A stretch of DNA of 64,000 nucleotides, taken from positions 6,904 through 70,903 of the forward strand of contig JAZURV010000001.1 in NCBI GenBank assembly GCA_045606425.1, given 5' to 3'. Shown in pieces: positions 16,346 through 39,007 of this stretch. Each line of letters begins with the position of its first letter. Position 1 is the first letter of the stretch. The notes beneath the pieces were generated by a model. That model saw only the letters and a list, made by a program, of their open reading frames with translations, was not told the origin of the DNA and ran no database searches. Position numbers and translations under genes: made by a program. The DNA comes from Candidatus Enterousia sp. Lineage in GTDB: Bacteria > Pseudomonadota > Alphaproteobacteria > Rs-D84.

Positions 16346-16390
16346 AATTTGTCAAGTTTTGCGGTTTTTTGCGCCTTTGAAAGATTTGTC

Positions 16391-16541: not shown

Positions 16542-16814
16542 ATGAACAAACAAGAATTGATTGAAGCAATTGCAAATGAAGTTGAAGTTACAAAAGCAAC
16601 TGCAGCTGGTTGTTTGGATGCGTTCATCAACACAGTCACAAAAGTATTAAAGAAAAAAGGCGAAGTTCGCTTGGTAGGCTTTGGTACATTTGCAACTGCA
16701 AAACGCAAAGCAACAACAGGCCGCAACCCACAAACAGGTGCTCCAATTAAAATTGCTGCTTCTGTACAACCAAAGTTCCGTCCAGGAAAATCCTTGAAGG
16801 ATGCTTTGAACTAA
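16542..16814 (+). CDS. hupB: DNA-binding protein HU
   Basis: MNKQELIEAIA...GFGTFATAKRKATTGRNPQTGAPIKIAAS..PKFRPGK is the canonical HU/IHF signature. RBS aaaggag. Confidence 0.9.
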   Translation: MNKQELIEAIANEVEVTKATAAGCLDAFINTVTKVLKKKGEVRLVGFGTFATAKRKATTGRNPQTGAPIKIAASVQPKFRPGKSLKDALN

Positions 16815-19831: not shown

Positions 19832-20137
19832 ATGCAGTTTTCGAATATTTCAGAATTGGAATTGGCAAATATATTTGTCCATGCAAAGAAAGAAAAAATA
19901 GAAAAACTGTTGGGTGTCAAAAATTTGAACACCCATATCGCCACCGAAATGGTTTATCGTTTTTTAAGGAAACAATCACCAGATTTCTGGAACGATTATC
20001 AAAACAAATATACTGCGTTATTTGACGAAGTATTCTTTTATATGATTGTGGACGAATTACAAACGCGACAAAATTGTGGTAAAAAATTAGATAGCAATTT
20101 TCGATTTGTTGAACCAAATATCGCCTATGTTTCATAA
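19832..20137 (+). CDS. Hypothetical protein (101 aa)
   Basis: The ATG is preceded by aaaaaggtggtg. The longer ORF-track start would run through the terminator. Confidence 0.45.
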   Translation: MQFSNISELELANIFVHAKKEKIEKLLGVKNLNTHIATEMVYRFLRKQSPDFWNDYQNKYTALFDEVFFYMIVDELQTRQNCGKKLDSNFRFVEPNIAYVS

Positions 20138-23661: not shown

Positions 23662-24279
23662 TTATCTAGTGTGTTGTTGAATTGTATTTTGTGGCACATA
23701 AATCATATCCGCATGCGCAATAACAGAATATAAATTGCCGGCGAATTCTGGGTGCAGCGCAACATGGTTGTTTATGATTTTCAAAATCTGTTTTTGTGCG
23801 ATGGAAATTTGCTTTGTTGTAATGCTGTGAATTGCCGCATCGTGCAAATCGTATTTTTCATACACGCGTAATTTTCTTTGCAGATTGTGCACAATATTTA
23901 AAACCTGCTTTTGTTCAGATTCGCGCAGGCTGGTTGCCAAAAATTTTGCTACATCGTTCATGGCTTTTTTGTTATAAAGCACTTTTTCAAAAATTTTTAA
24001 ATCGGGGTGCTTCGTCATAAATTGCTTTATGTATTTGCTGGTGATACGGTCAGAAAACTTTTTGCTGTTGTTATATACGGCCACGCCCCATATCGCCCAT
24101 ATAATCATTGTTACAGACGCTATGGCCAACAATGCGATGTTGCTGGGGCTGACTTTTTCTGATTTTATGTCATGGGCCGCTTCATATGATAAAGGTACCC
24201 CAAACAGAAAAACAACAGCAATCAGTGCCGGCATGGTTTTTTGTAAAACAAATGTATTCAAAATTTTGTTCGATTGCAT
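23662..24279 (-). CDS. Hypothetical two-TM membrane protein, tandem paralog B
   Basis: Paralogous to 23057-23647. Confidence 0.5.
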   Translation of the reverse strand: MQSNKILNTFVLQKTMPALIAVVFLFGVPLSYEAAHDIKSEKVSPSNIALLAIASVTMIIWAIWGVAVYNNSKKFSDRITSKYIKQFMTKHPDLKIFEKVLYNKKAMNDVAKFLATSLRESEQKQVLNIVHNLQRKLRVYEKYDLHDAAIHSITTKQISIAQKQILKIINNHVALHPEFAGNLYSVIAHADMIYVPQNTIQQHTR

Positions 24280-24372: not shown

Positions 24373-24466
24373 CATGCAACTTTGTTGCTCTGACCCATCC
24401 CTTCATCCCGCCCGTTAAAACCAAAAACCCACCAAAAGGCGGGTTTTAAAGTTTTAATCTGGCGGA
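24373..24466 (-). repeat. Direct-repeat copy R1a: a copy of the ~90 bp flanking the 3' end of tRNA-Ser, including the first 7 nt of the tRNA 3' end
   Basis: catgcaactttgttgctctgacccatcccttcatcccgcc...aaaaggcgggttttaaagttttaatctggcgga differs at only a few positions from 38828-38923. Confidence 0.85.
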
Positions 24467-24495
24467 CCAAAATTCTGTTGCACAAATTTCCATAC

Positions 24496-25101
24496 CTAAA
24501 TATGCGAATTTTGCTGGATGATGCTTTGCAATACAAAACCATATTTTACGACAGGTGTTTCATTAGACGCAGCCAGAAAATCGTTTTTTGTAATATCGAT
24601 ATCTGTTGATTTATCGGCTGTAATTTTTATTGCATGTACAGAAGTATATTTATCCATTAATAAATCAAGACAATCTTTTGCATTTATACGAACCAATCCG
24701 GCAACTTCGTCAGGTTGAAAATGGAAATCTGTAAATCCGGTCGGTAATTTATTTGCATAAATATGCGCAAATGCACGATCATGCCAATTTTTTTGTGGTT
24801 TGTCTTGCCGCCAAAATACGATATCTAATGCGACAGCATTTGATGCATCGGTGTTAATACCGATTTCTTCGAATATTTCGCGACGGAAAGCATCGCGCAC
24901 TGTTTCCCCCGCCAATACATGCCCAGATGCGGTAGTATATAGCTTACCAGAATCTGCACGAATTTGAAAATATATATTCCCATCATCGTCATACATCCAA
25001 CAATGTACGGTCTTATGCCATAATCCGTTGCGATGAACAGTATCACGAGATTCTGTTCCGATTTTATTCATGTATTCATCATAAATATCAAGATATTCCA
25101 T
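24496..25101 (-). CDS. NUDIX hydrolase
   Basis: Canonical Nudix box GHVLAGETVRDAFRREIFEEIG. Confidence 0.8.
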   Translation of the reverse strand: MEYLDIYDEYMNKIGTESRDTVHRNGLWHKTVHCWMYDDDGNIYFQIRADSGKLYTTASGHVLAGETVRDAFRREIFEEIGINTDASNAVALDIVFWRQDKPQKNWHDRAFAHIYANKLPTGFTDFHFQPDEVAGLVRINAKDCLDLLMDKYTSVHAIKITADKSTDIDITKNDFLAASNETPVVKYGFVLQSIIQQNSHI

Positions 25102-25183
25102 AAAATCTCCTTTGCCTGGTATATGATAATAAAACAGAAAGAAAAATGAAATAAAAAAACACCCTTGGCAATTTTTTTTAAAT

Positions 25184-25222
25184 TTTAATCTGGCGGGTCA
25201 GAAGATATTCGAAAGGTCGGAT
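25184..25222 (-). repeat. Degenerate junction copy: ttttaatctggcgg followed by a tRNA-3'-end-like T-loop fragment
   Basis: The reverse complement cgacctTTCGAATatCTTCtgacccGCCA parallels the tRNA-Ser 3' end caagggTTCGAATccCTTCatctccGCCA. It lies where the AT-rich cluster begins. Confidence 0.45.
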
Positions 25223-25438
25223 TTTTTTGCCACGTGTGCGAATTTCTTCTTTTTATACAAAGTGTATTGCCATGATATTTTTTAACCCCACAAAAGCCAA
25301 AATTTCGAATGTTTCCAGGGATTGTTTTTATAAAAAATATGTTGTACAAATATTGGTGTCTTATAAAAACGTGCATATCGTTTGGCATATAAACAAGAAC
25401 GTCGAAAAGGTAGAATATAGAGCAGTTTTGTTACCGGA

Positions 25439-26281
25439 TTAACAAGATGGTAAAAACAACCAATTATATTCTGGAAATGTTATAGGTTTATCGTATCCCA
25501 AATCACGCAATATTTGTATAACTTCTTCTGCATGACAGGGCAAGTAGTCGTGACAATATGCAGGAAAACTTTCTATGAAGATAGCGGGTTTGTATTTTTT
25601 TATCGTATTTATCATTCCTTTCAAAACTTCCGTTTCAAAGCCCTCAACATCTATTTTAACGAAATCTATCTTTTTCAAATTTAATTTAAAGCTATCCAAA
25701 GATACTATTTTAAAACTAAATTTATTTTTTGTGTTCGATGTTTTTATACTTGTTCCGCCAATATTATCAGATGCCATAAAATCAATTTCTCCGTTCCCGC
25801 AATCGTGCCCCAGACCGACATTATATGTGGTCACAATTTTATCAAGATTATTTATTTTAATGTTGTTTCTCAGCATTCTGAAAGTTTCCTGAACCGGTTC
25901 AAAAGCAATTACACGCTTTGCACCGCCGATTGTTGCAAAAAACACCGAATGATTACCGATATTTGCGCCGATGTCCAATATGGTGGCGTTTTTTGGTAAA
26001 TATTTCAACAGAGTGTAAAGGATGTCTTGCTCAAAAAATTTAGATGTGTTCACGATAGTGCGTTGTATTACGTCCCACGGATACAAAGGGCAATACATTT
26101 TTACAGAATTTGGCATCGTAAAAACATCACCGTTTTGTATCAAAGACATTTTTCTGCAAATCGTATCCGTATCAGAAAAGACAGGAATATATTTTGGTAA
26201 TATACTGTGCTTCCGTTGGAATTTGCGGCGTTTGTCTTTTGATATAATAAAAAAAGATATTGTTTTCAGTATGCCTTTCAT
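25439..26281 (-). CDS. FkbM-family methyltransferase
   Basis: ILDIGANIGNHSVFFA...AFEP...IDFVKIDVEGFE motifs. Confidence 0.75.
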   Translation of the reverse strand: MKGILKTISFFIISKDKRRKFQRKHSILPKYIPVFSDTDTICRKMSLIQNGDVFTMPNSVKMYCPLYPWDVIQRTIVNTSKFFEQDILYTLLKYLPKNATILDIGANIGNHSVFFATIGGAKRVIAFEPVQETFRMLRNNIKINNLDKIVTTYNVGLGHDCGNGEIDFMASDNIGGTSIKTSNTKNKFSFKIVSLDSFKLNLKKIDFVKIDVEGFETEVLKGMINTIKKYKPAIFIESFPAYCHDYLPCHAEEVIQILRDLGYDKPITFPEYNWLFLPSC

Positions 26282-26299
26282 GGTGTCTCCATATTGTGT

Positions 26300-26953
26300 T
26301 TAATATATTTCTATTTTTTTATCCCAATCAATGTCGTGCTTTACAATTTTTGCAGGATTTCCCGCAACAACTGTATTTGTTTCATAGAATGCCTTTGATA
26401 CAACAGCAGAATTTGCGACAACCGAGTTGTTTGGAATTTTTGCCCGTTTTGTCAAGATGGCATTTGCGCCAATCCAACAATGATCGCCGATGGTCAAAGA
26501 ATCCCGTGGAATATTTATAACCTGTTTTGTTTTTTTATCAATCAGCGCATGAAAATCAGACGCCCATATTTGAACGCCACTTGAAATCAAACATTCTTTG
26601 CCAATATTACATTTTGCACCGGAGGATATATAGATGTGTATTTCTTGGATATATGTGTTGTCATCAATACAAAGATAATTACCGTTTCCACGTTCCATCA
26701 ATATATCTGTATCGTTAAACATACAATTTTTGCCCAATTTTATAACATTATCATCGGATAATATCGTGATGTTTATATTTGCGGGGTTTAACGGAAGCCC
26801 CACATAAATTCTGTTATTATTCCCATGTATTTTGATTTTTCCCAATTTGCGAATTTCTTGGCGGCCCAACTTAAAAAGTTTGTCGTCTACAACAGCAGCG
26901 ATAATGTTGTTTTTACCATTGATATCAAATTTATTAAAACCGAATATTGACAT
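26300..26953 (-). CDS. Hexapeptide-repeat (LbH) acetyltransferase
   Basis: IGDHCWIGANAILTKRAKIPNNSVVANSAVVSK...VVAGNPAKIV. Confidence 0.75.
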   Translation of the reverse strand: MSIFGFNKFDINGKNNIIAAVVDDKLFKLGRQEIRKLGKIKIHGNNNRIYVGLPLNPANINITILSDDNVIKLGKNCMFNDTDILMERGNGNYLCIDDNTYIQEIHIYISSGAKCNIGKECLISSGVQIWASDFHALIDKKTKQVINIPRDSLTIGDHCWIGANAILTKRAKIPNNSVVANSAVVSKAFYETNTVVAGNPAKIVKHDIDWDKKIEIY

Positions 26954-27049
26954 ATTGTATTGTATTGTAATTTATGGTGTCGGTTTTTCAAGCTTTTTCT
27001 TGATATTTGATACTTTGTGTACAATCATAATAAAAAAAGAGGTTTTGCA

Positions 27050-27811
27050 ATGATCCCAAAAATTTCCGTTTTTATGCCCGCGTATAATTCAGAAGCATTT
27101 ATAGCAGAGGCCATAGAAAGTATTTTAAATCAAACTTTCAAAGATTTTGAGTTTATAATAATAAATGATGGTTCCACAGATAATACGTGGAATATAATAC
27201 AAAAATATGCAAAACAAGATGACAGAATTCGTGCGTATTCCAGATGTAAAAACAAAGGAATTGTTTGTACGGCAAATGAAGGTTTTGACCTGGCTAGGGG
27301 TGAATATATTGCCCGCATGGACAGCGATGATGTGTCTTTGCCAGAACGTTTTGAAAAACAGATAACATATATGGATGAACATCCGGATGTCGGGCTGCTT
27401 GGGGCATGGACACAATATTTTCCGGGATTTGATATTTCCAAACGGCCAGAGAATATAGATTTGTTTTATCTGTTAAAAGATTGTCCGGTGGACCAACCTG
27501 TTGTAATGATAAGAAAATCAGTCATAGATAAATATAATTTACGATATGATGGAGATTATTTGGCATGTGAAGATCAAGAATTATGGTTCAGATTGATCAA
27601 GGTTTCCAAAATAGCAAACTTGCAAGAATTGTTATTGAAGCACAGATGGCATGGAAATAATATATCAATCAAAATGGGCGATGTTCAACAACAAAATATT
27701 CAAAAAATTCGAAAACAGATTTTAAATTTCATAACAACATCCCCAGAACAGCAAGATGCTATAGCTAAGATTATACCAGAAATGTTTGAGCCCTTGGTAT
27801 TAAAATCTTGA
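27050..27811 (+). CDS. Family 2 glycosyltransferase
   Basis: ISVFMPAYNSEAFIAEAIESILNQTFKDFEFIIINDGSTD and ARMDSDD motifs. Confidence 0.85.
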   Translation: MIPKISVFMPAYNSEAFIAEAIESILNQTFKDFEFIIINDGSTDNTWNIIQKYAKQDDRIRAYSRCKNKGIVCTANEGFDLARGEYIARMDSDDVSLPERFEKQITYMDEHPDVGLLGAWTQYFPGFDISKRPENIDLFYLLKDCPVDQPVVMIRKSVIDKYNLRYDGDYLACEDQELWFRLIKVSKIANLQELLLKHRWHGNNISIKMGDVQQQNIQKIRKQILNFITTSPEQQDAIAKIIPEMFEPLVLKS

Positions 27812-27857
27812 CAACTATATATTTTGTGCTATATGTATAAAAACAAATGGCAAGAAC

Positions 27858-29309
27858 ATGAAATTTGAAGATGGCACCACTTTGATACAATTATCTGATA
27901 ATGTGTACTGTTTAAATAATGCTTATCGTCAGTCGCAAATTTTTGGTGACCGCACATTAAAAGCTGTTTTTGAAAATTTATCCAAAAATAATTATGTAAA
28001 TTCTGATAGTTACAATATACTGTTACATAATAATTTTTTAACAAATCAAAGACCAGATGTATACAAGCAAAAATTATTGCAAGATTCTGTTAAATATAGT
28101 ATACAACCAAAATTTAATTTGTTGCGAATTTTGCTGACTGATGTTTGTAATTTAAATTGTGATTATTGCAAAGTTATAAAATTAATAGATGCGCCGTCGG
28201 CGAAACCAACACAACCAGAACGTTTAGAAAAGGCTATAAAGTTTTTCTTTGAAAATTCTACTGCGGCAGAACCAAAAATAATTCATATTACTGGTGGTGA
28301 ACCCACGTTATTTTTTGACAGTATAAGACAAATAATACAATTCAAAAATACTTATGCACGTCCAAATGAAAATTGTTGGATTGTTGTTGGAACAAACGCG
28401 ATTGCTATAACTCCGGAAAAAGCACGTTTTTTCGCTGATAATAACATGAAATGTATTGTGTCAATGGACGGACCAGAACAAGTACATAATATTTTACGAA
28501 AAAATCATGCTGGTCAGGGAACATGGTCACAGGTCGATAAAAATATTAAATTGTTGCAATCTTTTGGTGTAGAAATATCTATTTCTGCTGTGATGGGAAA
28601 ACATACAATTTATCAGGCCGATGAAAATATCTCTTTTTTGATAAATGAATATAATCCAACTGGCCTAGGTATTAACTTTATGAAGCCACCGACTACAAAT
28701 TCTAGCGATTATAAATATTTAATTGATGAAAAATTATACGCAGAAACAATGTATAGATTACATCAAAAATATCGTACGCGTGGCGTGTTTTTTGAGCTTA
28801 TTTTCAGACACTTAGAGCCTTTTGTAAAACAAAATTTCAGATTTCATGATTGTGGGGCAGCGGCCAGCCAAAATTTGAATATAGATGCCAAGGGCAATAT
28901 CGGACCCTGTAAGTCATTTTTGTTGTGGAACAAGATGGCAATGAAAGATATAAATATCCAAGAATATAGCAATATTGTATCTGAAAATTGGGAAAGACGC
29001 TCACCAATTCATTTCGAACCATGTCAAAATTGTTCATGTATTGGTATATGTGGAAATGGGTGTGCATATGATGCTTTTATCAATAACCGAGATATGTTGG
29101 CCATAGATACCAGGGGCTGTAAATATGTAAAATGTTTTTATGATTTGTTTTTAAAAGATTTATATGAAATATCGTGCAAAACACATGAGGGGCAAAATAT
29201 TTTTGTGCCATCTCAAGCGGACAGACAACAAATGTTAGGAAATGTAAAGGAAATTCAAAATTCTTTAAGTTATTCAATTGGACACCAAACGAAACATTTT
29301 CAAAAATGA
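27858..29309 (+). CDS. Radical SAM/SPASM-domain enzyme with a ~95-aa N-terminal extension (possible PqqD-like peptide-recognition element)
   Basis: CNLNCDYC (CX3CX2C at residues 97-104), ITGGEPTL, and the SPASM-type Cys clusters CGAAASQNLNIDAKGNIGPC and CQNCSCIGICGNGCAYDA. The N-terminal YCLNNAYRQSQIFGDRTLKAVFENL resembles an RRE. Confidence 0.75.
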   Translation: MKFEDGTTLIQLSDNVYCLNNAYRQSQIFGDRTLKAVFENLSKNNYVNSDSYNILLHNNFLTNQRPDVYKQKLLQDSVKYSIQPKFNLLRILLTDVCNLNCDYCKVIKLIDAPSAKPTQPERLEKAIKFFFENSTAAEPKIIHITGGEPTLFFDSIRQIIQFKNTYARPNENCWIVVGTNAIAITPEKARFFADNNMKCIVSMDGPEQVHNILRKNHAGQGTWSQVDKNIKLLQSFGVEISISAVMGKHTIYQADENISFLINEYNPTGLGINFMKPPTTNSSDYKYLIDEKLYAETMYRLHQKYRTRGVFFELIFRHLEPFVKQNFRFHDCGAAASQNLNIDAKGNIGPCKSFLLWNKMAMKDINIQEYSNIVSENWERRSPIHFEPCQNCSCIGICGNGCAYDAFINNRDMLAIDTRGCKYVKCFYDLFLKDLYEISCKTHEGQNIFVPSQADRQQMLGNVKEIQNSLSYSIGHQTKHFQK

Positions 29310-29908
29310 TAAAAAGAAGTACTTTGTTTTCTGTTTTAATAACTGGATACAGTATTTTAAATCGACGCAAAAACTTTGTGCATAATTTTAGCCATAGTAA
29401 ACGTGTTTTTTATAATAATATATGTATTTTGGGGGTGCGTGCGATTCCTTTCCTTCGCGTTTTATTATTGACTTCGATATGGCATGATGTTGGACAAAGT
29501 GATTTTAAACAACAGGCTAAATATCATCATATATATTCTGCCAGATTATTCAAATATTTTACCAAAGAAAATAAATACACAGATATCGTTGTGAATATAA
29601 TTTTATGTCACAGAAATCGTGGTGCAAATGCGCAATATTGCCCAAAAACATTATTACAACAGGCCTTTTTTGATGCTGATAAATTGGACGTGTTAAATAT
29701 ACCACGGTCAAAAAAATTGATAAAAATGTATTCGCGTGGTTTTTCATGTGGTGAATTTAATATCAAAGATACAATTCGTTTTTGGGAAGATTTTATCACA
29801 AATGGTGAAAATATTTTATTTTTAGAAAAATCTAAGAAATTATTCTGTCAAAGAAAAAATGCTTTCGTAAAATTTATATCCGAAATCAAAGGAAAATATA
29901 ATGTCTGA
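29306..29908 (+). CDS. HD-domain phosphohydrolase
   Basis: An H...HD...H...D pattern (IWHDVGQ, YHHIYSA, ILCHRNRG, FFDADKLD). ATGA overlap with the radical SAM gene. Confidence 0.55.
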   Translation: MIKRSTLFSVLITGYSILNRRKNFVHNFSHSKRVFYNNICILGVRAIPFLRVLLLTSIWHDVGQSDFKQQAKYHHIYSARLFKYFTKENKYTDIVVNIILCHRNRGANAQYCPKTLLQQAFFDADKLDVLNIPRSKKLIKMYSRGFSCGEFNIKDTIRFWEDFITNGENILFLEKSKKLFCQRKNAFVKFISEIKGKYNV

Positions 29909-31268
29909 TATGGAGAAAGTAGAAATTACAAATATGGATGTTTTTTTTGATTATATTAAAAAACATTTTTTTACCGGCATCATAGATCAGCACTATTTAT
30001 TAAACAACACGCCGAACGGTGTATTGAATTCCATTTTAGAATCGTTAAAACAAGAGTTGTCGCCTGATAATGTAAAACAAATAAAAAATATATTGTTTTA
30101 CAAATGGATTTATACAAATGGTATGAAATCTTTGTTGCTGGACCAACAATCAGATTATATTGTAAAAACGGATGCAGGATATGAATTTGTGCCAAGGCAA
30201 GAACTTTACGGACATTTATTACAAATCAAAGATTATTTTGATTATATGATAGATTTTTATATTAAAAAAAATATGTCTTATAAATTGAAATTGGCCCTGT
30301 TTACATCGGAAACATTTGAATCTGCGTTTCGCAAGGCCAATATTGAATTTGAAAAACGGGTAAAAAGAAATTCTGCGTTGGGCATAGATAATGAAAAAAA
30401 TATTTTAATGCATCTTGATAATGAATATAAGCTTGTAAAATTAAACACAGTGTATGATTTGGATTATGAAGGGTTATGTATCGGGCACTGTATTGGCGAG
30501 GGTATCTTGGACAAAGAAATAAATGATAAAAAATCAACAATAACAGTTTGTTCTTTGCGTAAAGATATGTTGATGAAAGAACGCATATCTGGAAAAAACA
30601 TAATTCGGTCAATACCTTTTGCTTCAATTGTCATAGATCGTTTTGAAAAACGTCTAAACGGAAAATTATATGGCAATGTAATTTCCATTGAAGGACATAT
30701 CGCAGGCACAGTAAGATATTATCTTAAAAACAAATTGGAAAAACAAGATGCATGGAAAGGCAGATTTCCACCATACGTTCATGCCACGCCAATATCAAAC
30801 GAAGAAATTATATTTCGTGATACAGAATTACAACAAACACTGATAAATTTATTTATGCAAAACGAATTGGTAATATGTGGCGAAAGAAAATATACGCCAT
30901 GTTTGACCAAAGATTATAATATTGGTATGCCAACAACATATTCTGTACGCGTTAAAAACCAAGATGATTTAATTCGCGTCGCCAGTCACGGATTTCATCA
31001 TATTGTTGTCCCGTCATATGATATTTTTGTGTCAACAATTCAACCGATTAAGGTGGAAACTTTTGATAACAAAAATACAATAGATATAACAAAAGCTGGA
31101 ACATACGATTTAACAGAATTGCAAAATTTAAATACAATAAATGTTTTTGCGAATTGTGTGACAATATATTGTTATAATTGTAATAATTTACAACGTGTGA
31201 ATCGTTCGCCGGATACAAATGTGTTGATGGAGCGTAATAAATATAATATTATACAAAATATTCGTTAA
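29901..31268 (+). CDS. Hypothetical protein with a PcfJ-like central motif
   Basis: LDYEGLCIGHCIGEGIL ... ITVCSLR resembles the EG..M.HCV ... I.SiR core of PcfJ-like (PF14284) proteins, from memory. It overlaps the HD gene by 8 nt. Confidence 0.35.
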   Translation: MSDMEKVEITNMDVFFDYIKKHFFTGIIDQHYLLNNTPNGVLNSILESLKQELSPDNVKQIKNILFYKWIYTNGMKSLLLDQQSDYIVKTDAGYEFVPRQELYGHLLQIKDYFDYMIDFYIKKNMSYKLKLALFTSETFESAFRKANIEFEKRVKRNSALGIDNEKNILMHLDNEYKLVKLNTVYDLDYEGLCIGHCIGEGILDKEINDKKSTITVCSLRKDMLMKERISGKNIIRSIPFASIVIDRFEKRLNGKLYGNVISIEGHIAGTVRYYLKNKLEKQDAWKGRFPPYVHATPISNEEIIFRDTELQQTLINLFMQNELVICGERKYTPCLTKDYNIGMPTTYSVRVKNQDDLIRVASHGFHHIVVPSYDIFVSTIQPIKVETFDNKNTIDITKAGTYDLTELQNLNTINVFANCVTIYCYNCNNLQRVNRSPDTNVLMERNKYNIIQNIR

Positions 31269-31279
31269 GGGATGTTTCA

Positions 31280-32149
31280 ATGAAAATATACAAAGATGGA
31301 TGGTTAAAAACCGACGGCAAACACAAGATTTATTATATGCAATTGGGCAATCCAAATGGGATTCCGGTTTTGTCTTTTCATGCTGGTCCTGGTGATTGTT
31401 CATGGGCGGGATTTTATGATTTTTTGGACGAAACAAAGTATAATATTATAACATTCGATCAGCGTGGTTGTGGAAAATCTGAACCGTTCGGTGAAATCGC
31501 GGATAATACAACCGACAAAATTTTGACCGATGCAAAGGAGTTGTTGGATTTTATAGGGATTCGCGAAAAATGTATTTTATTCGGTGGATCATGGGGCTCT
31601 GCATTGGCGTTGTCTTTTGGCGCCAGATATCCAGACACAACAAAATCATTGGTGTTGTCAAATGTTCTGTTGGGGCGTCATCACGATTTAAAAAAACTTA
31701 TGTGTGATTTAAAAATTTTTAAGCCATTATCAAATTACAATGTTGATGAAAGTAATATATTTTTGAAAATAAAACATGCAATACAAAATAATGACATTGA
31801 ATTTATATCAAAATACAATGATTATGAAATATACAAATACACTTTTCATAAAAATAACGGATTAAAAACAAATTTAGCTGGTAAAGATTTTTTGCAAAAA
31901 CGTCTATATTGTCATTTTTTATGTAATAATTTATTTTTGCCGGATAATGGTATTGTGGATGAATTGACCGCGCTATCGGGAAAGCCGATTTATTTGGTGC
32001 ACAATAAATACGACCCAATATGTAATATAGAACAGGCGCATCTTTTAAAAAAACTGTTGCCACAAACCGAATTGGTCGTGTTAAATAAACGTGGACATGG
32101 GGGCGATTTTCAAATTGACACAATTAAAAAATTCTTTAAAAAAGCTTAA
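31280..32149 (+). CDS. Prolyl aminopeptidase-type alpha/beta hydrolase (S33)
   Basis: FHAGPG, FDQRGCGKSEP and GGSWGSALAL motifs. Confidence 0.75.
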   Translation: MKIYKDGWLKTDGKHKIYYMQLGNPNGIPVLSFHAGPGDCSWAGFYDFLDETKYNIITFDQRGCGKSEPFGEIADNTTDKILTDAKELLDFIGIREKCILFGGSWGSALALSFGARYPDTTKSLVLSNVLLGRHHDLKKLMCDLKIFKPLSNYNVDESNIFLKIKHAIQNNDIEFISKYNDYEIYKYTFHKNNGLKTNLAGKDFLQKRLYCHFLCNNLFLPDNGIVDELTALSGKPIYLVHNKYDPICNIEQAHLLKKLLPQTELVVLNKRGHGGDFQIDTIKKFFKKA

Positions 32150-33341
32150 TATATGCCTGGTTTACCCTGGATATCCACCATACGAACGGGAGTCTGGGGG
32201 AATTGCATCTTATGTCCAAGAAAATGTAAGGTTTTTAACCGCCATGGGGCATAATGTTGTTGTTATTTCGCGTGCACCGGATATATCGCATGTTATAGAA
32301 ACAAATACCGATAAAACAAAAATAATATATTTGCCTCATTTTCTGCCGCGCATCTGCAAATTTTTTACCCCGCTAAAATTTAATAAATATGGTGCATATT
32401 TTTATTCATACAAAGCATATAAACAATTAAAAAAAATAGAAAAAGAAAATCATATTCACTTTGATGTCATCGAAACCAGCGATTGGGGCGGCGAAGGTTA
32501 TTTCTTTGTAAAAAAATTCCAAGACAGGACAATTATAAAATGTGACACCCCCAGTTTTATATCGGAATCATACAACCCCAACAATCCAGCGTATCTAAGT
32601 TCTTTTGTAAAGAAATTGGAACAAAGAACATTATTGAATGCGAAAAACATTGTCACAAACAGCAAAATTTTGATGCAAAAAATCTGTGCTGTGTTGCACA
32701 AAGATTTACCATTCACATTGGTACAATTGTCAATAAAAACAACACCAATTAAAAAAACAAAATACACCAATAAATTTTCAAAAAACAATCCAATGAAAAT
32801 AATATTTTCTGGTCGCATAGAAGAACGCAAAGGGATTTTTGGTTTAATAGATGCTATAAAACAACTTCGAAAAAAAGGATTGTATATAGAACTTCATTGC
32901 TTTGGTGCGACAACGCCAATGAAACATACGGACAGTATAACACTATTAAAAAACGAGGGGTATAGTTGGCTCCATTTTTATGGACAAATTCCCAGAGACC
33001 AAATAATGAAAGAATATAAAAATTACGATTTGTGTGTTGTGCCGTCAGTGTTTGATAGTTTTTGTCTGACAGCATTAGAAGCGATATTTTCAAAAATTCC
33101 AACTATAGTTTCCGATACAACAGGCATTTCAGATTTAATATCGGATAAATTTCTTGTCTTCTCTTTTCCCATAGATATTATATCAAAAATAAATGATGTG
33201 TATTTTAATTACGCATCCTATGCAAGAAAGACAGATTTGGTATTGAATGATTTACTTTGTAAAACCGATAGGGCAAATATCGATCGTATGACATATTATT
33301 TTAAAATCGCCAAACAAAATAATTTAAAATCAAAGTGTTAA
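32091..33341 (+). CDS. GT4-family (GT-B) glycosyltransferase; start uncertain
   Basis: ICLVYPGYPP...GGIASYV N-terminus and C-terminal PSVFDSFCLTALEAIFSKIPTIVSD. The ORF start overlaps the preceding gene. Confidence 0.7.
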   Translation: MDMGAIFKLTQLKNSLKKLNICLVYPGYPPYERESGGIASYVQENVRFLTAMGHNVVVISRAPDISHVIETNTDKTKIIYLPHFLPRICKFFTPLKFNKYGAYFYSYKAYKQLKKIEKENHIHFDVIETSDWGGEGYFFVKKFQDRTIIKCDTPSFISESYNPNNPAYLSSFVKKLEQRTLLNAKNIVTNSKILMQKICAVLHKDLPFTLVQLSIKTTPIKKTKYTNKFSKNNPMKIIFSGRIEERKGIFGLIDAIKQLRKKGLYIELHCFGATTPMKHTDSITLLKNEGYSWLHFYGQIPRDQIMKEYKNYDLCVVPSVFDSFCLTALEAIFSKIPTIVSDTTGISDLISDKFLVFSFPIDIISKINDVYFNYASYARKTDLVLNDLLCKTDRANIDRMTYYFKIAKQNNLKSKC

Positions 33342-33605
33342 CCATAACTTGTTTGATAAAAGCACAAAAACCTGTCTGTGTTTAAAAATCGAAAATATGC
33401 CAATTATTTCTATCTTAAGATATTTGTTTCAATATCTTATGCTTTAACATATTTGTATCACTCATATATAATCTTTTAGTTGCCGAACCCTAAAAAAAAC
33501 ATATCTATTCAGGAGAAAACCGGCATTGGGATTTTGGGCAAGGTATATAAATTGCGAGAATTTGGGTTGGTTGGGTGCAAGTGGCGATATACATTGGAAA
33601 CATCA

Positions 33606-33688
33606 TGGGTAAAATCTGCCAGAAACGGGGCGAAAAAGAACATCCCGCGGAATTACCACGGGATGTCTAAACTTAGTGGCGGAGATGA
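33606..33688. repeat. 83-bp perfect direct repeat, copy A (contains tRNA-Ser 3'-end sequence on the minus strand; tRNA identity continues to ~33697)
   Basis: tgggtaaaatctgccagaaacggggcgaaaaagaacatcccgcggaattaccacgggatgtctaaacttagtggcggagatga is identical to 38651-38733. Confidence 0.9.
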
Positions 33689-33900
33689 AGGGATTCCATC
33701 GGCTTTCGCCTACGGGGCAACCGTAACGACTATGAGTAAACGAAAACGAGTGTTTACGAAGTTTGAGTGCTAACGAATGCCGCGTAGGACAAAGTCCGAG
33801 GGATTTTGGTGCGTTTGCACTTCCAAAATCTACTTGTTGTCGAACCCTGCAACTGCGTTGCAAACGATTCAAATCTGCCAATATCTCCGCCAAAAATTAG
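33689..33900. other. ~210-bp non-coding segment bounded by inverted copies of the tRNA-Ser 3' core (TGGCGGAGAT ... ATCTCCGCCA), with several local hairpins
   Basis: Hairpins GTAAAC/GTTTAC, GATTTTGG/CCAAAATC and GCAAC/GTTGC, followed by the terminator-like ccccgcaaaagcgggg at 33901-33916. Confidence 0.4.
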
Positions 33901-34160
33901 CCCCGCAAAAGCGGGGTAAATTCCTGGCGGAGTTGTAAGAAAGAACGGTATTAGATATGATAACTACAGGGTATTTACAGGGAATTTTTACGAAAAACAA
34001 CCAGTTTTACCATAAGTCGTGCTGCTGTAACGCTGTAAAATCGCCACTTTTACAAAAAATTCCCTACTTAAAAAGCAGGGAATTACTTCGCATTAACAGG
34101 GAATTTTGTTTTGCAATTTTGTAAAAATCACAGTTTTGTAAAATGTGTTTAACAAAAATG

Positions 34161-34189
34161 TTGATTTTGTTGTTTTTGTAAAGTATAAT
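34161..34189 (+). promoter_or_regulatory. Sigma-70-like promoter of the ATPase-protease operon (TTGATT-17-TATAAT)
   Basis: Hexamers read directly. RBS aaaaagggg follows, then the ATG at 34215. Confidence 0.5.
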
Positions 34190-34214
34190 GTTATTAAACA
34201 AAAAGGGGCTTTAT

Positions 34215-35564
34215 ATGGCATCTGAAACACTTATATCACGTCCAGAATATACAAACAAGCTGAAAAACTGGCTTGGTCAAACCGACCTTGTAAAAATAGT
34301 TACAGGGGTTCGTCGTTGTGGAAAATCTAAATTATTAGAATTGTTTGGTTTGGATCTTTTGTTTGGTAACGTTGCCACTAGTGACCATATACTATCTATA
34401 AACTTGGAAGATCCAGTTTTGACAGGCAAAATAGGTTTGAAACTGAATTCTGATGGTTTGCTGCAAGATTATCAAACGTTATTGGATTATATATTATCAA
34501 AAGTCAAAGATGATAAAACATACTATGTTTTCATAGACGAAGTTCAACTTGTAGAAAATTGGCAGGTAGTAGCTAATGGATTACGTATGCGTGGCAACAT
34601 AGATGTATATTTAACTGGATCTAATGCATATATGTTTTCCGGCGATATAGCAAATTCTTTTGGTGGACGTTATGTTGAAATAAAAATGCAACCGCTATCT
34701 TTTGCAGAATATTTCAGCTTTTATAGTCAGAGTTTTAATCATCAAATAAAGAAACGTGAAGATTTAGAAAAACATCGTAATCCTTACGCTATATATGAAG
34801 ATTATATCCATGAAAGTGGCTTTCCACAGGTGCAAAAGTTGGTGCACATGGATGATAAACAGGTTATAACAGATTATCTGATGGATACCGTGTTCCGAAA
34901 TGCTATACAGAAAGACATAGTAAAACGTTTTAATATAGCTAGCGACAATAAATTAGATGTCGTGACAAGATATTTGTTTGATAATATAGGGCGTGATACT
35001 TCTGTGCGTAATATAGAACGCTGTTTAAAAGATGCGGGTTATAATATATCTGCACCAACAATAGACACATACATAAAAGGATTATTGGATAGTTTCTTGA
35101 TGTATAAATGCGAAAGATACGATGTCAAAGGTAAAAAAATATTAAGTGGTGATGCAAAATATTATGTGGTCGATGCAGGTTTGCGTTACGCATTATTGGG
35201 CGACAAAGATACAGATGCTGGTCGTATACTGGAAAATGTTGTGTATCTTGAATTGATACGTCGTGGATATAACGTGTCTGTGGGTAAAATACAAACACAA
35301 GTAAGAAACGAAGAAGGCAAGGCTGAACGCAAAACAATAGAAGTCGATTTCGTGGCAACCAAGCCAGGTGGACAGGTAGAATATTATCAAGTTGCGTGGG
35401 GTGTTTTGAATAATGAAGATGTTGCAAAACGCGAATATGCATCATTGGAACAAATAAAAGATAATTATCCAAAATACTTGTTAACTATGGATTATGGTTC
35501 TGGCGAACAAAACGGCATAAAACGTCTAAATGTTTTGGAATGGTTGTTAAATATGGAACATTAA
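34215..35564 (+). CDS. AAA-family ATPase (AAA_14 plus DUF4143 architecture)
   Basis: Walker A GVRRCGKS and Walker B YVFIDEVQ. The C-terminal IEVDFVATKPGG.VEYYQVAW resembles the nuclease-fold-like DUF4143 tail. Confidence 0.7.
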   Translation: MASETLISRPEYTNKLKNWLGQTDLVKIVTGVRRCGKSKLLELFGLDLLFGNVATSDHILSINLEDPVLTGKIGLKLNSDGLLQDYQTLLDYILSKVKDDKTYYVFIDEVQLVENWQVVANGLRMRGNIDVYLTGSNAYMFSGDIANSFGGRYVEIKMQPLSFAEYFSFYSQSFNHQIKKREDLEKHRNPYAIYEDYIHESGFPQVQKLVHMDDKQVITDYLMDTVFRNAIQKDIVKRFNIASDNKLDVVTRYLFDNIGRDTSVRNIERCLKDAGYNISAPTIDTYIKGLLDSFLMYKCERYDVKGKKILSGDAKYYVVDAGLRYALLGDKDTDAGRILENVVYLELIRRGYNVSVGKIQTQVRNEEGKAERKTIEVDFVATKPGGQVEYYQVAWGVLNNEDVAKREYASLEQIKDNYPKYLLTMDYGSGEQNGIKRLNVLEWLLNMEH

Positions 35565-36530
35565 ATGTCTGAAGGATTAATTTACTGTATAAGCCCTGTA
35601 TTATACCATGATGTATCTACTGAATATTCTTATAGAAGAGGAACGGCTTTTTATACGCAGTATTCAGAACGATTGTTTGCCATAACGGCCAGTCATTGTA
35701 TAGAGAAAAATGATATTAATAATTTGTTTTTAGGTTTAAATCCAAGTAAAAGACGGAATTATAAAATTCCATTAAACAAACAGATTAATGTTAATTACAC
35801 AGATGGTGCAGAAATTGATTCTGATATCAGAATATTTGAGATAGATCAAATATCTATTATGAAAAATTTAGCAGAAAGAACCCAAATTAGATCATATGAT
35901 GACATGGTTAAAGAAATTAGATGTACTCCTTTAGCAAAACGATTATTAAAAAAATATAAAAATCAACCAGAAAAATTTCGTGAAGCATTGATGAAAACAA
36001 CAATGTTTAAAACTATACACGGAAGACAACTTGATGAAATTGAAGATTCGCTTGAAAAAGCTGACACGTCTTTGGCGGATATAAAAACATTGGAATTAAC
36101 AAAAGATATTATTCTACAACCAGGAGATCCTTTTGCTGCTGTTGGTTTTCCAACGGAGCCATCTGGGGACAAACTTAAAATGACAGATGATGGAAAAATT
36201 ACGGGTTGGCATTTTTCATATGCGGAATGTGATCTTACATATATTGAAACACATCAAAAATGTGGTGATTATGTTTTTTCTTACGATAAATCTTTAGATT
36301 TAAATGGTTTTAGCGGTGGACCAGTAGTAGGCGCAAATAATAAAGTTATAGGTGTTTTAAGTTGGGGAGAAAAAGAGAAAGGGCTGGTATATGTTACGCC
36401 AAGTGTGAATGTAATAAAAGCTATTGATAGTATAGTCAAAAATACGCCAGATGAATTTTCTTTATGCACAGATATACCATCTGGTATAGAACAAGAATTG
36501 TTAAAATTGATTTATAAAAAAATTGATTAG
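35565..36530 (+). CDS. Trypsin-like (S1/chymotrypsin-fold) serine protease with a ~100-aa helical insertion
   Basis: His motif ITASHC, Asp candidate SDIRIFEID and Ser motif GFSGGPV. The start codon abuts the ATPase stop (TAAATG). Confidence 0.65.
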   Translation: MSEGLIYCISPVLYHDVSTEYSYRRGTAFYTQYSERLFAITASHCIEKNDINNLFLGLNPSKRRNYKIPLNKQINVNYTDGAEIDSDIRIFEIDQISIMKNLAERTQIRSYDDMVKEIRCTPLAKRLLKKYKNQPEKFREALMKTTMFKTIHGRQLDEIEDSLEKADTSLADIKTLELTKDIILQPGDPFAAVGFPTEPSGDKLKMTDDGKITGWHFSYAECDLTYIETHQKCGDYVFSYDKSLDLNGFSGGPVVGANNKVIGVLSWGEKEKGLVYVTPSVNVIKAIDSIVKNTPDEFSLCTDIPSGIEQELLKLIYKKID

Positions 36531-36644
36531 CAGACAGTACACGTTTTCTGCGGCAAAATCATTTTCAACAAAAAAATGAATATAAAAAATATTTTTGTAC
36601 TTTCTTGCACCGAATCGTGATTTTTGCTATTTTTATTACAAAGG

Positions 36645-36680
36645 AAAGGAAGATTGCTAAACAAAGCGCTTCCTTTTTTG
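36645..36680 (+). terminator. Intrinsic terminator after the protease gene
   Basis: Hairpin gaaaggaag-N16-cttccttt followed by a T-run. Confidence 0.5.
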
Positions 36681-36742
36681 TTTAATAAGTTTAACACGGA
36701 GAGATAACAAAAGGGGGGAGAAAGAAGGAAAGGAGGTGTACA

Positions 36743-38062
36743 ATGAGTGCACTAGTATTTGAAAATTTAAAAGTTGCGGATGTTCATGGTTATGAACATA
36801 ACGCAAAAACACATCCTGAATCTCAGGTACAACAGATTATATCTTCTATAACCAAATTTGGTTTTAATAATCCAATATTAATCGATGAAAACAATGAAAT
36901 TATCGCGGGCCATGGTCGTTTTTTGGCTGCTCAGGCAATGAATCTGGAAACTGTTCCAACGATAAAGCTTTCACATTTAACGGATGCGCAAAAACGCGCT
37001 TATAGATTGGCAGATAATAAGATTGCCGAAAATGGCGGCTGGAATAAAGAATTGCTAAGCCTTGAAATCAAAGATTTAGAAAAAATATGCCTGGACGATA
37101 ACTTTGTAATTCAAGATATCGGATTTAATGATGCGGAATTAGATTCAATCATTAACTTCACAGATGCAAAACCAATCAATCAGAAAACCAATGCTGTGCC
37201 ATTTATCCCAGAAGATGAAATCATATCCAAACCTGGTGATATATGGCAATTGGGCAAACATCGCATTATTTGTGGCGATAGTTTAAACTCAGATACATTT
37301 GTGAAACTGTTTGATGGTAAAAAGGCAGATATGGTTCTGCAAGATCCACCATATAATGTGAAAATTGATGGGCACGTCTGCGGTTCAGGTACGGTAAAGC
37401 ATAAAGAATTCGCAATGGCATCGGGGGAAATGACCACAAATGAATTCACAAAGTTTTTGGAAACCAATTTCAATCTATGTAAACAGTATTCCAATGATGG
37501 TTCTTTGCACTATAACTTTATGGATTGGCGTCATGTTTTGGAAATCACAACCGCGGGTAAGAATGTATTTGATAAATTCATCAATATGTGCGTATGGGTA
37601 AAAACATCTGGTGGTATGGGCAGTTTATACAGAAGCCAACACGAACTATGTTTTATATTCCAAAATGGCAAACAATCACATAATAACAACGTCCAATTGG
37701 GTAAATATGGCAGATACAGAACCAATGTATGGCAATACCCAGGCGTAAATGCGTTTGGCAAACACAAAGACGAAATACAAATGCATCCAACGGTTAAACC
37801 CGTAGAAATGATGAAAGATGCGATATTGGATGTATCCAAACGTGGCGATATTGTGTTAGATTGTTTCCTTGGTTCAGGTAGCACTTTAATTGCCTGCCAA
37901 CAATCTGGGCGTATTTGTTATGGCATAGAATATGAACCGCTTTATATAGATACAACAATACGGCGCTTTCAGAATTTATTCGGCATAGATGCGATAAATT
38001 TATCCGTCAACAAAACATACAACGAATTATTGAAAGAATACAAAGGGGGAAATAATGTCTGA
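36743..38062 (+). CDS. ParB-like nuclease domain fused to a beta-class DNA methyltransferase (N6-A or N4-C)
   Basis: ParBc N-terminus (NPILIDENNEIIAGHGRFLAA...RAYRLADNKI), DPPYN (motif IV), then the later DCFLGSGST (motif I). Confidence 0.8.
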   Translation: MSALVFENLKVADVHGYEHNAKTHPESQVQQIISSITKFGFNNPILIDENNEIIAGHGRFLAAQAMNLETVPTIKLSHLTDAQKRAYRLADNKIAENGGWNKELLSLEIKDLEKICLDDNFVIQDIGFNDAELDSIINFTDAKPINQKTNAVPFIPEDEIISKPGDIWQLGKHRIICGDSLNSDTFVKLFDGKKADMVLQDPPYNVKIDGHVCGSGTVKHKEFAMASGEMTTNEFTKFLETNFNLCKQYSNDGSLHYNFMDWRHVLEITTAGKNVFDKFINMCVWVKTSGGMGSLYRSQHELCFIFQNGKQSHNNNVQLGKYGRYRTNVWQYPGVNAFGKHKDEIQMHPTVKPVEMMKDAILDVSKRGDIVLDCFLGSGSTLIACQQSGRICYGIEYEPLYIDTTIRRFQNLFGIDAINLSVNKTYNELLKEYKGGNNV

Positions 38063-38459
38063 TTATGAAATAGGATATGGTCGCCCACCAAAATCAACAC
38101 GGTTTAAACTAGGTCAATCTGGTAATCCAAAGGGTCGTAAAAAAGGTTCTATGAATCTTGATACGATTTTGATGAAGGCTTTGGATGCGAAAATAACCGT
38201 TGAAACACCAGCCGGTACAAAGCGTATTACTAAAAAAGAAGCGATAGCTATGAGATTGGTAAACAAAGCGGCTATGGGCGATCCTAAATCAATACAAACA
38301 CTGTTGCCTTGGATGTCTAAAGTAGAAGAACGCAACAAATTAATCGCGCAAAAGTTAGAAGATGTAACCGAACAAGATGATATGATAATAAAAGGTTTTA
38401 TAGATGGTATCAGGACGAATAACGCCGCAACGTCAACTGCAAGCAATATTGAGGAATAA
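38055..38459 (+). CDS. DUF5681-type phage protein (small-terminase-like)
   Basis: GYGRPPKSTRFKLGQSGNPKGRKKG is the hallmark N-terminus of this family. It precedes a large-terminase fragment. Confidence 0.6.
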   Translation: MSDYEIGYGRPPKSTRFKLGQSGNPKGRKKGSMNLDTILMKALDAKITVETPAGTKRITKKEAIAMRLVNKAAMGDPKSIQTLLPWMSKVEERNKLIAQKLEDVTEQDDMIIKGFIDGIRTNNAATSTASNIEE

Positions 38460-38715
38460 CTTTAAAAGTTTTGTTATCAAGGTATTTCAAACAGTATCGA
38501 ATGATACATACCTTGATAACTGGCATATAGACGTTGTGTGTAATGAAATAGAACAAATGATATCTGGTAAAAATACAAGATTGATTGTTAATTTGCCACC
38601 ACGTAATATGAAATCCATTATTTGTTCTGTTGCATTACCTGCGTATTTGTTGGGTAAAATCTGCCAGAAACGGGGCGAAAAAGAACATCCCGCGGAATTA
38701 CCACGGGATGTCTAA
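38404..38715 (+). pseudogene. Phage terminase large subunit, N-terminal fragment truncated at the 83-bp direct repeat
   Basis: DNWHIDVVCNEIEQMISGKNTRLIVNLPPRNMKSIICSVALPAYLLGK is a terminase N-terminal ATPase motif. The frame then runs into repeat copy B and stops. Confidence 0.6.
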
Positions 38716-38733
38716 ACTTAGTGGCGGAGATGA
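38651..38733. repeat. 83-bp perfect direct repeat, copy B
   Basis: Identical to 33606-33688. Confidence 0.9.
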
Positions 38734-38827
38734 TTTTTTCTTGATAAACAATAATAAAAATCTATAAAAACTCGTATTAAAAAACTCCGTTTTTATGATT
38801 TTTCTAATTGTTCATCTGCGGATTGGT

Positions 38828-38923
38828 CATGCGCAACTTTGTTGCTCTGACCCATCCCTTCATCCCGCCTGTTAAAACCAAAAACCCGCCAAAAGGCGGG
38901 TTTTAAAGTTTTAATGTGGCGGA
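38828..38923 (-). repeat. Direct-repeat copy R1b (native 3' flank of tRNA-Ser, including its terminator)
   Basis: Near-identical to 24373-24466. It contains the hairpin aaaacccgcc-aaaa-ggcgggtttt. Confidence 0.85.
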
Positions 38924-39007
38924 GATGAAGGGATTCGAACCCTTGATACCGTTGCCGGTATACCACATTTCCAATGTGGCGCACTAGACCAACTATGCGA
39001 CATCTCC
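38917..39007 (-). tRNA. tRNA-Ser(GGA)
   Basis: The reverse complement GGAGATGTCGCATAGTTGGTCTAGTGCGCCACATTGGAAATGTGGTATACCGGCAACGGTATCAAGGGTTCGAATCCCTTCATCTCCGCCA has a long variable arm and anticodon loop TTGGAAA. Confidence 0.9.

Follow-up and report, generated by a model that had tools for sequence, protein, structure and literature searches.

Downstream of a tRNA-Ser(GGA) gene in a 64-kb stretch of DNA (the whole of which is called the window here), we found an island, at positions 24376-38923, that is probably composite and horizontally acquired and would have grown by successive insertions at the last bases of that tRNA gene, (C)TCCGCCA. The window comes from a metagenome-assembled genome (MAG) of 933 kb in 15 contigs with 40.1% GC. 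This genome is labelled G000, and the genus comparison covers 81 genomes including G000 (80 congeners). The tRNA gene is on the minus strand, so that its downstream side has the lower window coordinates. The insertion target and the first gene beyond the island are:

38917-39007, minus strand: tRNA-Ser(GGA), the insertion target, whose 3' end reads TGGCGGAGATGAAGGGATTC on the plus strand of the window (ARAGORN; Rfam RF00005, 59.7 bits)
23662-24279, minus strand: a membrane protein of 205 amino acids (aa), the first backbone gene outside the island, with homologues between tRNA-Ser and PBP5 in G002, G008 and G081

Each incoming element would have supplied its own tRNA trailer and terminator and displaced the older material outward. 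Listed from the tRNA side, the proposed layers would be:

Layer 1: a non-coding mini-element of 183 nucleotides (nt), called A-type, with a 12-nt repeat of the tRNA end
Layer 2: phiB, a putative 4.8-kb remnant of a phage-like element of the large-serine-recombinase kind, which would have kept both arms of its phage attachment site (attP) and lost its recombinase gene
Layer 3: a second mini-element, C-type, of 230 nt, with a 20-nt repeat of the tRNA end
Layer 4: an 8.5-kb unit without an integrase gene, apparently made of a second attP arm, a gene stub, a low-GC gene cluster and a degenerate far end that resembles a tRNA end
Layer 5: a 0.7-kb Nudix cassette
Layer 6: a presumably older, truncated A-type mini-element (D1a)

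An original prediction for this DNA had proposed serial integration at one tRNA gene and a division of the interval into three parts. The division agrees with the annotation, which places a Nudix gene at 24496-25101, a gene cluster at 25439-33341 and a phage-like remnant at 33.9-38.7 kb, and serial integration gains support from modules that recur near-identically at tRNA-Ser genes in other species. The GC profile of the island deviates as well (33.4% against 40.1% for the genome, the 0.4th percentile of 14-kb genome windows).

The tRNA-Ser(GGA) locus in related genomes

The nearest relatives of G000 are ruminant and horse gut MAGs labelled Candidatus Enterousia or Alphaproteobacteria bacterium. 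The backbone order rpoZ, tRNA-Ser(GGA), variable gap, membrane protein, PBP5, holB is kept in five congeners (G002, G008, G001, G046 and G081), in which the gap spans 1.5-4.8 kb, is occupied by other genes and lacks every gene of the island; it measures 14.6 kb in G000. The near-empty junction that had been anticipated is thus found among the relatives, and in G081 it is almost bare (tRNA, mini-element, 1.2 kb, membrane protein). Other species have different cargo 3' of tRNA-Ser(GGA), phage-like genes among it, and because the same tRNA carries differing cargo across species, its 3' end appears to be an insertion hotspot throughout the genus. No record matched in exact-protein look-ups for conspecific contigs with rpoZ, Nudix and PBP5.

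Rearrangement is also seen at this locus. The PBP5-holB block lies beside a MiaB-like gene on the rpoZ side, and not 3' of tRNA-Ser, in G083 (C1), G089 (C4, L111), G041 (L114) and G050 (L115); since the block lies on the rpoZ side in these four species, the tRNA-Ser locus is also a synteny breakpoint.

The phage-like element phiB and its serine recombinase

The layer for which an insertion mechanism can best be traced is phiB, whose genes span 34188-38715 and whose parts are:

33925-33932: a TGGCGGAG core, the distal phiB junction; the same junction of far end and TCCGCCA is found in G089 and G008
33933-34187: the attP left arm, or far end, of phiB, in which CAGGGAATT-type motifs are reiterated; 84% nt identity to the far end in G089
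34188-35564, plus strand: an AAA_14/DUF4143 ATPase (Pfam; PADLOC candidate system PDC-S01, E = 2.9e-126)
35565-36530, plus strand: a trypsin-like protease (Pfam), directly after the ATPase
36743-38062, plus strand: a ParB-N and N6/N4 DNA methyltransferase protein (Pfam; PADLOC MTase_II)
38055-38459, plus strand: a DUF5681 protein (Pfam PF18932, E = 1.9e-20), found in 23 of the 81 genomes including G000
38404-38650, plus strand: a stub of the terminase large subunit, its first 82 codons (phrog_4758, phrog_38), cut by an internal deletion
38651-38721: the right attP arm of phiB (D2b), which has a terminator of its own at 38685-38711
38722-38733: the 12-nt tRNA 3'-end repeat TGGCGGAGATGA, at once the tRNA side of the phiB junction and the distal flank of the A-type mini-element

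G089 holds the best relative of the DUF5681/terminase/methylase block: the terminase stub is 93.8% identical to the start of a full 492-aa gene there, and the methyltransferase has 93.9% aa identity with its homologue in G089 and 92% with that in G008. The ATPase is 95.8% identical in the G008 element, in which a homologue of the protease was not found; by their annotation, the ATPase and the protease form a candidate defence cargo. In G089, tRNA-Ser(TGA) is followed by a D2-like arm, ∼21 kb of sequence, a far end homologous to window 33924-34106 and a Nudix gene. The Nudix protein is 96% identical between G089 and the window, against 69% for the backbone protein PBP5, and modules at 94-96% identity beside a backbone protein at 69% indicate recent horizontal transfer.

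Fuller copies of this kind of element (phi) follow tRNA-Ser(TGA) in G089 and G008 and tRNA-Ser(GGA) in G083, and each encodes a serine recombinase of 530-535 aa ∼2.5 kb from the tRNA junction. The recombinase of G089 (534 aa) matches phrog_95 ('integrase', E = 2.5e-96), and a truncated 363-aa recombinase in G018 has the domains PF00239 and PF07508. In comparison with the fuller copies, phiB is 12-18 kb shorter from terminase codon 82 to the arm, the interval in which the recombinase gene is located in those copies. Searches with PF00589 and PF00239 found no tyrosine or serine recombinase gene in the island interval, in keeping with the earlier remark that no integrase gene remains there.

The attachment site can be read directly from an IMG/VR contig (IMGVR_UViG_3300029904_000303; L138), in which a recombinase gene is followed by an uninterrupted series of arm, TGGCGGAG and far end (2560-2680) and then by the methylase, DUF5681 and terminase genes. 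Because the attP is contiguous there, the two ends of the integrated copies belong to one site, and the core shared with the tRNA is TGGCGGAG. Arms homologous to D2b abut tRNA-Ser in G089, G008, G009 and G003. At the other end, the junction ...ACAACTCCGCCA is identical in G000, G089 and G008 and the sequence beyond it differs; the junctions in these three genomes have just (C)TCCGCCA in common. We infer that the serine recombinase would exchange strands within TGGCGGAG. This core occurs five times in the window, always at a module junction (0.73 expected; five reached in no shuffle). A search for integrases elsewhere that recognise the core had been proposed; the recombinase of the fuller copies is of the large serine type, and its likely core is the 8-nt TGGCGGAG, not the 19-nt AATCCCTTCATCTCCGCCA that had been supposed. 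Next to the core, the CAGGGAATT and CAGGGTATTTACAGGGAAT motifs are also conserved in G089 and in the attP region of the IMG/VR contig (L138, 2620-2800), and a regulator or a directionality factor may bind to them.

A tyrosine integrase was considered as the engine and rejected, as none was found near tRNA-Ser(GGA) in G000 or in the 12 relatives searched. Tyrosine recombinases are encoded only at other loci of the genome, namely a pair of Xer-like proteins and two of ∼400 aa; the latter two belong to other elements. For example, G000 contig C15 (17.9 kb, outside the window) encodes a tyrosine integrase of ∼395 aa (15615-16802), and an exact repeat of 45 nt from the 3' part of tRNA-Asn (at 65-140 and 17749-17793) encloses nearly all of the contig; either the contig is circular or it represents a classical integrated element.

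The low-GC cluster unit and the Nudix cassette

The outer layers carry genes but no recombinase, and consist of the following features:

33451-33676: a second attP right arm (D2a, 33606-33676) and, on the minus strand, the first gene of a phi-type element reduced to a 56-codon stub
25439-33341: a transferase/radical-SAM cluster (Pfam, NCBIfam) with genes for an FkbM methyltransferase, a hexapeptide acetyltransferase, a GT2 glycosyltransferase, a radical-SAM/SPASM maturase, an HD protein, a 455-aa protein of unknown function, a prolyl-aminopeptidase-like hydrolase and a GT4 glycosyltransferase
25191-25222: a degenerate sequence resembling a tRNA 3' end (TGGCGGGTCAGAAGATATTCGAAAGG...), the distal end of the cluster unit, conserved in G002
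24467-25190, minus strand: the Nudix cassette, made of a degenerate trailer and terminator (∼25150-25190) and the Nudix hydrolase gene
24496-25101, minus strand: the Nudix hydrolase gene (Pfam PF00293)

The cluster had been noticed for its high AT content, and its GC content (31.9% over 8.2 kb) is indeed the lowest among 1,590 8-kb windows of the genome. The sequence from 25191 to ∼33500 of the window is 97.8% nt identical in G002, where it follows tRNA-Ser(TGA) on another contig, and the 455-aa protein has a 98%-identical homologue there. The block in G002 is flanked by a D2-type arm and by the same degenerate tRNA-end-like sequence, with the homology ending exactly at TGGCGGG. At the tRNA-proximal end of the unit, the 56-codon stub has 41% identity over 56 aa with an open reading frame of G089 (19871-21034; tblastn). 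Judging from these ends, the cluster unit looks like an element of the phi type that retained both ends and had its body exchanged for cargo. In G018 (L043, 1138-13721) a different cluster, in the same cargo slot, lies between an attP arm and the truncated serine recombinase gene; it includes a seryl-tRNA-synthetase-like gene, glycosyltransferases and a radical-SAM enzyme 48% identical to that of the window.

The Nudix gene is present in 13 of the 81 genomes including G000. It has CCGCCA-type relics on both sides in five of these (G089, G010, G013, G067 and G000; the distal relic in G067 is TCGCCA), and the sequence past the distal relic differs in each of the five. In the other genomes with the gene, it is near a tRNA-Ser, an A-type unit or a phi far end. 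A similar layout is seen at tRNA-Ser(GGA) of G002 (L038, 568-1393), where a 155-nt insert and a 23-nt tRNA-end repeat are followed by a lone GNAT acetyltransferase gene and then by D1, the 91-nt repeat described below; this GNAT unit is a one-gene cassette like the Nudix cassette. Integrase-less units such as the cluster unit and the Nudix cassette would have been moved in trans by a serine recombinase of the phi kind.

Repeats and non-coding mini-elements

The repeats that bound and divide the island, and the mini-elements to which most of them belong, are:

38833-38923: D1b, the tRNA-side copy of a 91-nt direct repeat, comprising the last 7 nt of the tRNA and the tRNA-proximal half of the A-type mini-element
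24376-24466: D1a, the outer copy of the same repeat, comprising a truncated old A-type mini-element and the 7-nt relic TGGCGGA, with a mismatch in the terminator stem
38734-38916: the A-type mini-element (183 nt), directly 3' of tRNA-Ser(GGA), with the trailer and terminator stem-loop at 38885-38900, an inverted 3' end of its own tRNA at 38853-38869, hairpin 2 at 38825-38852 and the AT-rich hairpin 1 at ∼38743-38815
33697-33924: the C-type mini-element (∼230 nt), with the trailer and terminator at 33901-33916, an inverted tRNA end at 33883-33892, a T-arm copy at 33840-33849 and cargo
33677-33696: 20 nt identical to the tRNA 3' end (T-loop through CCA), which flank the C-type mini-element on its distal side (0 expected in shuffles)

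D1a and D1b are 97% identical and 14,457 bp apart (repeat finder), which substantiates the claim that ∼90 bp flanking tRNA-Ser recur at the outer end of the island. What the repeat is differs from what had been supposed. It contains the trailer, the terminator, the inverted copy and the first 21 nt of A-type cargo, and from this content we take it to be the tRNA-proximal half of a dispersed 183-nt mini-element, not an attachment-site duplication made by the island. Its next-best copy in the genome is 82% identical and follows tRNA-Ser(tga) on another contig; past D1a, similarity to a cargo remnant is not above that of shuffled sequences. The repeats might have been dispersed elements unrelated to tRNA-Ser, and this is half right, because the cargo half is dispersed genus-wide while the other half is tRNA-specific.

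The original prediction had further listed shorter copies of the tRNA end inside the interval, and every one of them is there. The tRNA-end identity given for 33676-33697 is an exact match of 20 nt, that at 38722-38733 is an exact 12-nt copy, the core placed at 33927-33934 lies 2 nt away (33925-33932), and the copy placed at 25184-25222 starts 1 nt earlier, with TTTTAATCTGGCGG at 25183-25196 followed by a degenerate, TTCGAAT-containing stretch like a tRNA end to ∼25222. Taken alone, the bare 7-mers at 24460 and 25191 do not reach significance (30 TGGCGGR matches against 12.5 expected); they were counted because a conserved trailer adjoins them. The copies near 33.6 and 38.7 kb are real, and the last 12-20 nt that had been recognised are only the end of an 83-nt perfect direct repeat (D2a, 33606-33688; D2b, 38651-38733; repeat finder). 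This 83-nt repeat is the residue shared by two copies of one attP arm plus the tRNA end; it is bounded by the terminase deletion on the left and by the mini-element boundaries on the right, and no special mechanism is needed, so that a special event was rejected as its origin. Its 100% identity suggests either two near-identical elements, and thus a recent origin, or gene conversion, one of which is required because the corresponding arm in G002 is just ∼76% identical.

A-type units are not restricted to tRNA-Ser(GGA). In G000 the unit also follows tRNA-Ser(tga), tRNA-Tyr(gta) and tRNA-Gln(ctg), each copy having a distal repeat of the end of that tRNA and an inverted copy of the same end inside; genus-wide it follows 8 kinds of tRNA, always with an inverted copy of the end of its own tRNA. 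The inverted copy and the terminator together form a palindrome of ∼40 bp. The tRNA-proximal half of the unit is specific to its tRNA; the outer 99 nt (the cargo half) have 13 matches in G000 and matches in 68 of the 80 congeners. The cargo (window 38743-38852 and 16 copies from the genus) is predicted to fold into a long AT-rich hairpin and a second hairpin, with compensatory changes at 16 of 31 pairs among the 17 copies. TTGATA-16-TATAAA was rejected as a promoter of the A-type cargo, as it is not called by the promoter scan and sits inside the conserved long hairpin. A 12-13-nt repeat is found at the equivalent position in G074, G041 and G006. The A-type unit had no match in the GenBank phage collection.

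Homologues of the C-type unit are located directly 3' of tRNA-Ser(GGA) in G008, G001, G041 and G046, and its architecture matches that of inserts at at least 14 other tRNAs. The 20-nt copy at 33677-33696 is part of this second mini-element and not a phage attachment site. An Rfam scan of the window gave only its three tRNAs above threshold, and no known RNA family was found, 33300-34250 included.

Such inserts are frequent in the genome. With a repeat score of at least 15 out of 24 within 450 nt as the threshold, 16 of the 42 tRNAs of G000 (∼40%) have a repeat of their own 3' end downstream, in comparison with 0 of 40 upstream regions and 0 of 210 random windows. The repeats of those 16 tRNAs are 15-24 nt long and lie 80-450 nt downstream. 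The inserts share one anatomy: a new trailer and terminator, an inverted tRNA end, a T-arm copy ending in TTCGA, one of several types of cargo, and the repeat. For example, tRNA-Arg(acg) in the window (12503-12579) has a 19-nt 3'-end repeat at ∼12330-12348. Two kinds of transposase were considered as movers of the mini-elements and rejected, as neither an IS110-type (bridge-RNA) nor an IS200/IS605-type (hairpin-guided) transposase was found in 21 genomes.

Mini-elements leave a 12-21-nt tRNA-end repeat behind, and their cargo is conserved and hairpin-rich. We tentatively suggest, as an idea with rather less than an even chance, that the tRNA-end fragments reflect a genome-wide, apparently undescribed system of non-coding elements of ∼130-230 nt at many tRNA 3' parts. 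Their insertion would rebuild a clean tRNA end and so re-create the serine-recombinase target, and integrase-less cassettes (the cluster unit, Nudix, GNAT) would accumulate there and hop between tRNA-Ser genes. If true, genomes of ∼0.9 Mb would possess a system of cassette accretion with tRNA ends as its anchor.

Order of insertions and alternative explanations

If entry was always at the tRNA, the layers from youngest to oldest would be the A-type mini-element, phiB, the C-type mini-element, the cluster unit, the Nudix cassette and D1a. Homologous recombination at the 91-nt repeats could delete the whole island, and at the 83-nt repeats it could delete phiB together with the C-type element.

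Several observations weigh against this account. In many species the A-type unit is an ancestral neighbour of this tRNA, so it may be the oldest layer, with the island nested at its distal 12-nt repeat. The window is from a MAG contig, and the order of pieces bounded by repeats rests on the assembly. The attP arm of the cluster unit is ∼76% identical to the arm in G002 and its cargo 98%, which means that recombination between elements has also shaped the island. A phi-type recombinase is absent from the window and the genome, in which the sole Resolvase-domain match is a 198-aa protein encoded elsewhere, so mobility here is historical or helper-dependent. Finally, even in the fuller copies, genes for capsid, portal or tail went unrecognised in PHROGs scans (G089 and part of L138): the matches in the head/packaging/tail category are the large terminase and a weak terminase-small match on an ABC-type ATPase, and the others are the recombinase, a helicase, ABC transporters and proteins of unknown function. 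The 'phage' in phiB may thus mean a phage-derived island or a satellite, and 'phage-like' marks the limit of the evidence.

The first of these observations leads to an alternative that we consider unlikely, in which an A-type unit with a duplicated tRNA-proximal half (D1, cargo, 12-nt repeat, D1') pre-existed, the modules entered at the distal 12-nt pseudo-site and the 91-nt repeat is older than the island. The A-type unit is indeed directly 3' of tRNA-Ser(GGA) in G074, G081, G089 and G006, a tandem D1-cargo-D1' arrangement is seen in G081, G089, G050 and G041, and D1a and D1b are 97% identical, compared with 71-83% for copies between species. The pseudo-site, however, holds just 12 nt of tRNA and is a poor half-site for a serine recombinase, which needs a real tRNA half-site, and the 20-nt tRNA repeat of the C-type unit is longer than the pseudo-site could provide. 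In addition, the phi element of G009 and the GNAT cassette of G002 lie between the tRNA and D1, so both entered at the real tRNA end, and four or five pseudo-site insertions in succession with none at the intact tRNA site seem unlikely. In our judgement, entry at the tRNA is the more likely of the two.

Homologous replacement, in which a flexible region is swapped in blocks via conserved flanks or dispersed repeats and the tRNA-end fragments are passive, is in our view quite improbable as the explanation of the island. The ∼76% arm beside the 98% cluster, in comparison with G002, shows that recombination occurs inside elements, dispersed repeats (A-type cargo, D2 arms) supply the homology, and the tRNA-Ser locus is a synteny breakpoint in G083, G089, G041 and G050. 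But the homology of the modules stops exactly at TGGCGG in several independent genomes, the same modules are found at two tRNA-Ser genes with unrelated flanks, and an uninterrupted attP and a cognate recombinase both exist.

An assembly artefact, in which pieces from a mixed-strain metagenome bin were mis-joined at the 83-nt and 91-nt repeats, is very improbable: the MAG has 15 contigs, several copies of A-type cargo are at contig ends and a contig of G008 breaks exactly at the tRNA-Ser 3' end, but the junction from phi far end to mini-element recurs independently in G008, that from arm to cluster in G002 and that from tRNA to A-type unit with the 12-13-nt repeat in G074, G041 and G006, and the terminase deletion junction would not arise by mis-assembly.

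Comparison with known systems

Among described systems, successive insertion at tRNA-Ser(GGA) resembles most closely the growth of islands in Prochlorococcus, where tycheposons integrate at a tRNA, push older elements inward and leave partial tRNAs (Hackl et al., bioRxiv 10.1101/2020.12.28.424599). In that study 27 of 937 elements carry a large serine recombinase, and tRNA-Ser(TGA) is labelled in the element maps (10.1101/2020.12.28.424599). The likeness extends to a small streamlined genome, additive tRNA-proximal growth, scattered partial tRNAs with degenerate elements, and cargo for defence and surface modification. Given this match to the tRNA-proximal model, the island is of a kind already known; its layers are unusually legible here, in the very small genome of a gut bacterium. 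There are also differences. The element traced here uses a serine and not a tyrosine recombinase and shares just an 8-nt core with the extreme 3' end of the tRNA; the same elements use two tRNA-Ser genes; 180-230-nt non-coding mini-elements alternate with the gene-carrying layers; and near tRNA-Ser(GGA) in G000 and 12 relatives there is no tyrosine recombinase of the tycheposon clade, nor has a replication module been shown.

Large serine recombinases are known from phiC31, Bxb1 and SPbeta, which have a very short common attachment core, make no long attachment-site duplications and mostly target protein-coding genes. The recombinase in the relatives' copies of phi is similar, with ∼535 aa, Resolvase and Recombinase domains, a location close to attP and a very short core. 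In contrast to those phages, insertion here is at a tRNA gene end with the adjoining trailer, and neither structural phage genes nor a directionality factor were recognised. In Streptococcus thermophilus, derivatives of ICESt1 and ICESt3 that lack an integrase gene and keep their attachment sites (cis-mobilizable elements, CIMEs) accrete in tandem beside a resident element. The tandem arrays of the island are comparable, as are integrase-less units that keep attachment sites and would be movable by the recombinase of a related element. The recombinase class and the target differ from those of CIMEs, and mobilisation in trans is suggested here by the near-identical copies at two tRNA genes. The single-gene cassettes between short structured sites (Nudix here, GNAT in G002) are reminiscent of integron arrays; unlike in integrons, an IntI integrase and attI are absent, tRNA-end relics and terminators serve as separators, and the cassettes are located 3' of a tRNA and not of a cassette promoter.

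Implications

Less ordinary than the island as a whole are an 8-nt core at the extreme end of a tRNA that is used at two tRNA-Ser genes, and integrase-less units that retain both ends. More unusual are the gene-less mini-elements that bring their own target tRNA end and are found at ∼40% of the tRNA genes; they merit separate study. The analysis also supplies concrete attP and bacterial attachment site (attB) sequences that are directly testable. For the organism, the island gives a layer-by-layer view of how the 0.93-Mb genome of a gut symbiont gains and sheds foreign genes at one tRNA. The genes exchanged are of several types (surface- and peptide-modification enzymes, a candidate anti-phage ATPase/protease pair, a methylase and a Nudix hydrolase), and the likely engine is a serine recombinase acting on the last 8 bases common to the tRNA-Ser genes.

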